Of a DNA stretch of 9,617 nt, positions 2,724 through 3,374 are shown piece after piece; positions within the stretch are counted from its first letter, which is position 1; each line of letters begins with the position of its first letter. This DNA is from Candidatus Iainarchaeum sp. (GTDB taxonomy: Archaea; Iainarchaeota; Iainarchaeia; Iainarchaeales; CSSED10-239), in contig PWLL01000059.1 in assembly GCA_003559395.1 (NCBI GenBank), positions 1 through 9,617 of the forward strand, written 5' to 3'. A model generated the notes under the pieces. It saw nothing but the letters and a program-made list of their open reading frames with translations, had not been told where the DNA came from and ran no database searches. Both the position numbers and the translations under genes were made by a program.

Positions 2724-3374
2724 ATGATGGATATTTTTGAACTTATAAAAAAAGAAGAAAAAAGACAACAAAACACAATAGAACTAATTGCTTCAGAAAA
2801 TATTACATCCAAAAACATAAGACGTGCATGTGGATCTGTTCTAACAAACAAATACGCAGAAGGATATCCGAAAAAAAGATATTATTCCGGATGTGAGATT
2901 GTTGATGAGATTGAACAAAGAGCAATAGATTTATGTAAAGAACTATTTAAGGTCTCTTTTGTTAATGTTCAACCACATTCTGGCTCAAATGCAAATGAAA
3001 TAGCTTATTTTGCTTTATTAGAACCAAAAGACAAAATCCTTGGTATGTCCTTAGATTCAGGAGGACATCTAACACACGGATATAAGATTAATTTTTCTGG
3101 AAAAAACTATGATGCTTATTCTTATGGAGTTAATGAAAAAGGATATATTGACTATCAAGTTCTAGAAAAATATTCTAACCAAGATGTGTATGTTATAGGT
3201 GGGGCATCAGTATATAAACAAGCAATTGAAAAAGCAACTAAGTTAGAGATAACAAGGATAAATAAAGAATATGTTGGAGATACTTTTTTTCCAGAAATTG
3301 ATACAGATGTTTGGACGTTAGTAAATGAACAAAAAAAAGAAGGTTTTTCTTTTTTAACATATATAAGAAAATAA
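2724..3374 (+). CDS. Chimeric ORF. The N-terminal ~150 aa come from serine hydroxymethyltransferase (GlyA/SHMT) and are joined in frame to the C-terminal ~60 aa of dihydrofolate reductase (FolA/DHFR). Both parts are truncated, so this is probably a deletion relic or pseudogene-like fusion.
   Basis: SHMT motifs appear in order: IELIASENITS, LTNKYAEGYPKKRYYSGCE, VNVQPHSGSNAN, GGHLTHG, NFSGKNY..YSYGV....YIDY. The ORF then switches to the DHFR tail: DVYVIGGASVYKQAIEKATKLEITRINKEYVGDTFFPEID...W....

The track ORF starts at GTG 2715. In-frame ATGs lie at 2724 and 2727. Tandem stops TAA TAA lie at 3372-3377. Confidence 0.75.
   Translation: MMDIFELIKKEEKRQQNTIELIASENITSKNIRRACGSVLTNKYAEGYPKKRYYSGCEIVDEIEQRAIDLCKELFKVSFVNVQPHSGSNANEIAYFALLEPKDKILGMSLDSGGHLTHGYKINFSGKNYDAYSYGVNEKGYIDYQVLEKYSNQDVYVIGGASVYKQAIEKATKLEITRINKEYVGDTFFPEIDTDVWTLVNEQKKEGFSFLTYIRK

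Follow-up and report, generated by a model that had tools for sequence, protein, structure and literature searches.

How does a single open reading frame (ORF) come to encode the beginning of one folate-cycle enzyme and the end of another, and does the resulting polypeptide still do anything? The question is raised by a stretch of 9,617 nt (contig PWLL01000059.1; hereafter the window, meaning the whole stretch analysed), in which an uninterrupted frame joins the N-terminal part of serine hydroxymethyltransferase (SHMT, encoded by glyA) to the C-terminal part of dihydrofolate reductase (DHFR, encoded by folA). As argued below, this glyA'::'folA ORF is very probably a fusion pseudogene, the non-functional scar of a single deletion of ~3.3 kb. 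The window has a G+C content of ~26%, its gene set is archaeal in type (e.g. the D-aminoacyl-tRNA deacylase DtdA, PF04414, and an Asn-synthase/diphthamide-synthase fusion), and its lineage is DPANN-like, with Candidatus Iainarchaeum sp., Nanoarchaeota and Woesearchaeota as the best named relatives. The features on which the argument turns are these:

2724..3374, + strand: chimeric ORF glyA'::'folA, 216 aa plus stop, ATG start; Pfam SHMT and DHFR_1.
2724..3170, + strand: SHMT-derived part, codons 1-149; N-terminal arm and first part of the pyridoxal phosphate (PLP) domain, without the PLP lysine.
3171..3374, + strand: DHFR-derived part, codons 150-216 and the native folA stop; corresponds approximately to E. 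coli DHFR residues 85-159.
3159..3170, + strand: breakpoint zone, codons V146-L147-E148-K149 (GTT CTA GAA AAA), where the glyA and folA alignments overlap.

Both parts are recognised with scores far above the curated Pfam cut-offs of 27 (SHMT) and 25 bits (DHFR_1). PF00464 matches residues 3-179 of the chimera with profile positions 7-195 of 399 (E 5e-58, 197 bits) and PF00186 matches residues 150-206 with positions 87-143 of 159 (E 5e-16, 59 bits), the two envelopes overlapping only because '..IIAGASAY' of SHMT resembles '..VIGGASVY' of DHFR. Likewise, SHMT chains in the PDB cover residues 3-170/177 at chain positions ~11-190 of 417-424 (E 4e-56), and the last 71 aa align with PDB DHFR chains at positions ~89-157 of 159-165 (E 7e-9). 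The NCBIfam model for SHMT, NF000586, is not passed (230 bits, cut-off 335), and every NCBIfam DHFR cut-off exceeds the score of the chimera. A GTG start at 2715, upstream of the ATG, would give a product of 219 instead of 216 aa.

What, then, is left of each enzyme? Residues 1-149 represent the first 37% of an SHMT, keep the motifs ELIASEN, LTNKYAEGYP, QPHSGS.AN and GGHLTHG in the alignment, and share 77-82% identity with the N-terminal 149 aa of intact SHMTs of the clade (405-421 aa) and ~55-60% with bacterial SHMTs. The PLP-lysine motif TTHKTLRGPRGG, which lies at about residue 225 in relatives, is missing from the chimera in the alignment with clade SHMTs, and neither the remainder of the large domain nor the C-terminal domain is present, leaving the protein well short of the ~400-aa, two-domain SHMT architecture. 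The DHFR part consists of the last ~67 residues (DHFR positions ~87-159, including the IGG motif and GDTFFP) and is 60-72% identical to the C-terminus of the intact, 156-158-aa DHFRs of relatives. Profile positions 1-86 find no match in the chimera, and in comparison with intact clade DHFRs the first ~85 residues are missing; set against the DHFR family (PF00186), the chimera thus has no N-terminal catalytic acid, Met20-loop region, folate pocket or NADPH beta-alpha-beta motif. Each domain is less than half complete, where a bifunctional folate-cycle enzyme would have two complete catalytic domains. Since it fails the defining features of both families, the chimera is not a functional member of either; and because it lacks the PLP lysine and C-terminal domain of SHMT as well as the substrate- and NADPH-binding N-terminal half of DHFR, its product should be unable to perform either reaction.

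The first-pass annotation of this DNA had described the ORF at 2724-3374 as an SHMT N-terminus joined to a DHFR C-terminus, devoid of the PLP-lysine segment and of the N-terminal half of DHFR, and the Pfam and PDB matches to both partial domains bear it out: SHMT sequence stops at residue 149, and neither domain proved to be full length in the profile search that it had proposed, the C-terminal part scoring as DHFR. Its residue ranges, 1-152 and 157-219 counted from the GTG, were essentially right, the junction lying at V146-K149 when counted from the ATG.

The join itself is colinear, on a single strand and in frame, and it recurs elsewhere. A JGI contig from a soda-lake sediment metagenome (L001) encodes the identical 216-aa protein, unbroken across the junction. 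It is 99.8% identical to window positions 1658-3668, and the four single-nucleotide polymorphisms (SNPs) between the two, all inside the ORF of 117 aa just upstream of the chimera, indicate that L001 was assembled separately and has a slightly different consensus. The longest word common to glyA and folA of relatives measures 10-12 nt, and none occurs at the junction; with no longer word shared, a k-mer (de Bruijn) assembler has no basis for a false join.

What did the locus look like before? The nearest relatives of the window, contigs L103 and L104, were found by searching with the neighbouring Dph6 protein. They are colinear with the entire 9.6-kb window, share its flanks, and carry glyA and folA intact and in the same orientation. 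On the 5' side lie a dxr-like gene, dtdA (minus strand) and a homologue of the 117-aa ORF (73% identity); on the 3' side a fusion of a kinase with a dCMP deaminase (74% identity; hereafter the deaminase fusion), Dph6 (minus strand), a U32 peptidase (minus strand), a methyltransferase and an MscS-like protein. In the place of the chimera they have glyA (405 aa), ndt, tmk, thyA, a 109-aa ORF and folA (158 aa). By this synteny, what is missing from the window comprises the last 256 codons of glyA, the first ~85 codons of folA and, wholly, ndt, tmk, thyA and the 109-aa ORF, a deletion of ~3.35 kb by arithmetic on the gene coordinates of L104. The first-pass annotation had proposed that a deletion collapsed neighbouring glyA and folA genes into one ORF: a deletion between intact genes with the same flanks is indeed what the comparison reveals; glyA and folA, however, had four other genes between them.

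The same module, with minor variants of gene order, recurs in L002/L006, L089, L096 and L097. On L002, the contig with the closest SHMT match, the order is tmk, glyA, a 203-aa ORF, ndt, thyA, folA and the deaminase fusion; on L089, L096 and L097, glyA is followed by thyA, folA and the deaminase fusion. L090, L098 and L100 (976 kb) hold the module as far as the contigs extend, thyA standing after glyA at the contig end in L090 and L100 and after ndt-tmk in L098. In L103/L104, L002, L089, L096 and L097, therefore, the two halves of the chimera are separate genes on the same strand with colinear flanks, as expected of the parents of a fusion pseudogene.

Where exactly do the two genes meet? The junction-spanning peptide of the chimera is IDYQVLEKYSNQDVY. 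Its portion 'GYIDYQVLEK' aligns residue for residue with the glyA of relatives (e.g. L098 'GFIDYQALEK' / 'GFIDYQALEKIAKE'), and 'LEKYSNQDVYVIGGASVYKQ' aligns without a gap with their folA (e.g. L002 'LEYTGNKDVYIIGGASVYKQ'). At the aligned junction, clade glyA encodes [A/N/K][L/I]E[K/Q] and clade folA [A/I][L/I]E[Y/F], in identical codon phase, the pair [L/I]-E being encoded by both parent genes in all relatives. L104 has ATAGAA at this position in glyA and folA alike; L002 has GCTCTTGAG at the junction position of folA, and the same 9-mer four codons downstream of the junction position in glyA. Codons V146-K149 are attributable to either parent and would correspond to a stretch of microhomology, a crossover within which, being in phase, automatically produces an in-frame fusion.

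These features suggest the following course of events. The ancestor would have carried glyA, ndt, tmk, thyA, the 109-aa ORF and folA between the 117-aa ORF and the kinase/dCMP-deaminase gene. An illegitimate, microhomology-mediated deletion, presumably by replication slippage or end joining, would then have removed the DNA from glyA codon ~149 to folA codon ~86-88 at a short [A/V][L/I]E stretch present in both genes in the same codon phase, and translation of the resulting in-frame fusion would continue to the native folA stop. The chimera is probably still transcribed, given that it has kept the native glyA start and 5' context and follows the same-strand 117-aa ORF at a distance of 45 nt; its product would be without function. 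The cell would obtain its thymidylate from another source, either a thyX elsewhere or its host. ThyA generates dihydrofolate and normally co-occurs with FolA, which makes the joint removal of SHMT, ThyA and DHFR metabolically coherent. For the co-occurrence of the two proteins, the relevant passage of PMC11974145 cites Myllykallio et al. (2003).

How old is the deletion? In a search of 5.8 billion proteins, the chimera itself was the only one of the best 120 matches listed to contain both domains, and the score fell from 480 bits for the self-match to 259 bits for the next. The DHFR part alone gave three matches in the same set, one of them (L004) cut by a contig end. When the clade peptide motif HSGSNANEIAYF, back-translated to DNA, was scanned against JGI metagenome contigs, 12 contigs were retrieved, of which only the soda-lake contig L001 is chimeric; in the other 11, glyA runs past the junction point or is disrupted differently. 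The chimera is thus restricted to a single population. Within a 147-column alignment, its SHMT part shows two conservative unique changes at 91 sites that do not vary among 10 relatives; for intact relatives the number of unique changes at those sites is 0-2, and the branch leading to the window is of ordinary length. Because the SHMT part has undergone no accelerated change, the deletion looks recent. The ORF is identical in L001 and the window and so yields no signal in the ratio of non-synonymous to synonymous substitutions (dN/dS). The putative in-phase microhomology and recency together account for the open frame without any need for selection; that the frame stays open across the join had been pointed out in the first-pass annotation, and the [L/I]-E codons now supply the explanation. 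Selection on the fragment seems neither needed nor indicated.

The same population holds a second, nested deletion allele, which has removed the following segment:

2763..4166, + strand: segment absent from the second allele (L086), 1404 nt, in frame; chimera codon 13 is fused to the last 13 codons of the downstream DUF429 gene.

Contig L086 (locus 1-1457, from the same sample/metagenome) corresponds to window positions 1346-2762 and then resumes at window position 4167; it carries the four SNPs of L001. An AAAA microhomology is found at its join (window 2759-2762 and 4163-4166), and the fusion reads MMDIFELIKKEEK|EILSQKTIFDYKR*, so that the chimera is lost beyond codon 13 and DUF429 almost entirely. 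The Logan contigs L087 and L088 (runs SRR490128 and SRR490129) both terminate exactly at 2762, as is expected where two alleles branch. These runs, whose contigs match the window 5' of 2762, and JGI 3300000563 ('SL_3KL_010_SED') are the source samples. Together with the missing catalytic residues, the co-occurrence of an allele that deletes the ORF would be an indirect indication that the ORF has no function.

Is the window exceptional within its group? Related lineages have lesions of their own in the same genes. L101, a close relative (193-kb contig NPIE01002285.1, GCA_015657915.1; 11508-13655), has the 117-aa ORF, tmk and the deaminase fusion at the corresponding locus, with no glyA, ndt, thyA or folA, nor remnants of them, there; in this lineage the module has been lost completely and independently. 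One sister species is represented by three assemblies, L002, L006 and L091 (with 13 SNPs between the glyA sequences of L002 and L006), which have in common a -1 frameshift in glyA, CCTAGGG-TGGA versus CCTAGGGGTGGA (L002 ~1300-1310), located directly after RGPR, just past the PLP-lysine motif; glyA of this species looks inactivated. Its folA carries a stop at codon 36 (TTA-to-TAA) in L006 (5695-6162) and L005 (224-691), together with a G-to-E replacement in the conserved IIMGKNTY motif and, in L005 additionally, W-to-R in IPW; folA of L002, from the same species, is intact. As a side observation, A is the variant base in nine of the ten nucleotide differences among these three folA sequences.

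In a further species, represented by L003 (1660-2002) and L093 (2640-2756), glyA diverges after codon ~143 (GVGLDG|LWDK) and continues into CTTTGGGACAAAA and a ~230-nt segment bounded by an inverted copy of a glyA fragment. The two contigs show this segment in opposite orientations at the same breakpoint, and the lesion, which could be either a real fold-back or inversion or an assembly problem common to both, is recorded here without serving as evidence. L099 (1-14198) has an intact glyA followed by two copies of ndt and tmk, with the deaminase fusion further along, and thyA and folA were not found within its 14 kb, a further variant state of the module. Read together, the lesions in these lineages indicate that the folate-dependent thymidylate module is lost repeatedly in this group; the deletion in the window would be a recent step in a process by which the clade repeatedly lost, and is still losing, folate-dependent thymidylate (dTMP) synthesis.

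Fusion pseudogenes that arise through intergenic deletion are known from the reductive genomes of obligate symbionts and pathogens such as Mycobacterium leprae, Rickettsia and Buchnera. The glyA'::'folA ORF resembles them in that genes on the same strand were joined by loss of the intervening DNA with truncation of both enzymes, in a junction at short (here putative) microhomology, in a small, AT-rich host genome, and in the state of related lineages, where the same genes carry other inactivating lesions or are wholly gone. It differs from them in that the join is in frame, the scar is still pristine and a second, nested allele is present in the population, and also in that one step removed the whole cycle (SHMT, ThyA, DHFR and Tmk). 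Another conceivable comparison is with DHFR-TS of protozoa and plants, the natural bifunctional enzymes of the thymidylate cycle. Like DHFR-TS, the chimera is one polypeptide with sequence from two enzymes of the same cycle; unlike DHFR-TS, which has two complete, active domains and is conserved across large clades, it consists of two incomplete fragments and occurs in one population. This kind of feature is therefore well known, and the specific chimera appears to be undescribed. In annotation the ORF should be treated as a pseudogene and be given neither the SHMT nor the DHFR name, and it can serve as a warning case, for automatic annotation pipelines would assign two enzyme names to it. Beyond annotation, the locus gives a date and a place to one step by which a DPANN-type archaeon lost folate-dependent thymidylate synthesis, and it shows in a compact, natural setting how a pathway disappears, probably through microhomology-mediated deletion, which makes it relevant to reductive evolution and host dependence in ultra-small archaea.

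How well do other explanations of the locus fare? The one that survives best accepts the deletion as real and holds that the pathway was kept, via thyX or a second set of glyA, thyA and folA plus tmk, the scar merely marking the removal of a redundant copy; we regard it as possible, if on the doubtful side. The intact dCMP-deaminase fusion downstream would fit with it, and the deletion, along with the module, of tmk, which is normally essential, suggests that another tmk exists. Across the clade, ndt and tmk vary in their gene order, and L099 illustrates a glyA with neither thyA nor folA within 14 kb. Against this stand the 9.6-kb window, in which no such genes are found, and the relatives, which have a single copy of the module at this locus.

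Far less probable is that the chimera is a neofunctionalised small protein under selection, for example a folate- or SHMT-binding regulator or scaffold built from the SHMT N-terminal arm and a DHFR beta-sheet remnant. The ORF would then be expressed and co-opted as a folate- or partner-binding, dominant-negative or regulatory subunit, its pristine codons reflecting selection and not youth, and to this version, too, we would give very little credence. Such a protein would explain why 216 codons stay open at ~26% G+C, why the fragments show no excess substitutions and the native 5' context is kept, and why the window and L001 are identical within the ORF with four SNPs just upstream. However, the chimera is confined to one population, and that population also holds an allele lacking all but 13 of its codons; the close relative L101 is without a trace of either gene; both fragments are incomplete folds without catalytic and cofactor-binding residues; and the open frame would be fully accounted for by in-phase microhomology and recency. 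No confident fold was predicted either, the single-sequence AlphaFold2 model reaching a pLDDT (predicted local distance difference test) score of 36.6, a result that is uninformative. This alternative, which the first-pass annotation had listed together with an assembly artefact, finds no support here. Slimmest of all are the chances of the artefact, i.e. that assembly or library preparation wrongly joined reads of an intact glyA to those of an intact folA ~3.3 kb away in a genome that is really complete: the window derives from a metagenome, a nearby break (at 2762) occurs in other assemblies of this population and clade contig L003 ends in an obvious fold-back, but the identical junction in the separately assembled L001, the colinear, same-strand, in-frame join and the lack of a sufficiently long shared word all speak against it, and the motif scan gave no second contig of that sample in which an intact glyA continues.

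What weighs against the fusion-pseudogene reading itself? The chimera contains neither a stop nor a frameshift, and its two fragments retain all their conserved motifs, a picture that purifying selection on the fragment would produce just as recency does. Support for the junction comes from assembled contigs, which leaves a small residual doubt, the more so as the window and L001 may have been assembled from the same or related samples. The ancestral microhomology is reconstructed from relatives that are just 60-80% identical and is putative to that extent. Finally, an intact dCMP deaminase, an enzyme that feeds thymidylate synthesis, is odd if dTMP synthesis is gone, unless the genome has a thyX elsewhere or the deletion happened very recently.

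The neighbouring genes of the window are as follows:

2325..2678, + strand: conserved 117-aa ORF, upstream synteny anchor, same strand as the chimera and 45 nt ahead of it.
3402..4208, + strand: DUF429 gene; Pfam DUF429 E 5e-17, PADLOC PDC-S44 E 1e-76.
4215..5306, + strand: P-loop kinase/dCMP-deaminase fusion, intact, downstream anchor; Pfam AAA_18/AAA_17 and dCMP_cyt_deam_1.
201-1406, + strand: 401-aa DXR-like protein; weak, sub-threshold matches to PF13288 (23 bits) and PF02670 (18 bits).

Homologues of the 117-aa ORF lie directly 5' of the glyA/tmk block in L103, L104 and L101 (73% identity) and likewise in L089, L093, L100 and L006 (~36% identity), the ORF evolving fast across the clade; it has no match in Pfam, NCBIfam or PADLOC. 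All four SNPs that separate the window from the JGI and Logan contigs in 2 kb (positions 2361, 2541, 2573 and 2578) fall within it, causing two amino-acid changes.

The DUF429 gene was inserted in this lineage only and separates the folA remnant from the deaminase gene; no relative has a gene in that position. Its product is matched nearly end to end by PDC-S44, a PADLOC candidate phage-defence family; an exact-sequence look-up returned no other contig, and NCBIfam contains no family for it. Around the insertion and the junction, the only repeats are short A-rich matches at the level expected by chance at 26% G+C.

The deaminase fusion is 59-74% identical to the gene directly 3' of folA in L002, L089, L096 and L103/L104 (counterparts at 4305-5399 in L002 and 2619-3728 in L104), and it is kept even where thyA is absent, as in the window and L101. 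Its architecture is that of anti-phage dCTP deaminases (PADLOC dCTPase E 2e-52; NCBIfam NF041025 126 bits, below the cut-off of 400). The position directly after folA or tmk across the clade suggests a housekeeping role in nucleotide metabolism instead. At the other end of the window, the 401-aa DXR-like gene adjoins dtdA across the clade, and a DXR-like protein is unexpected in an archaeon.

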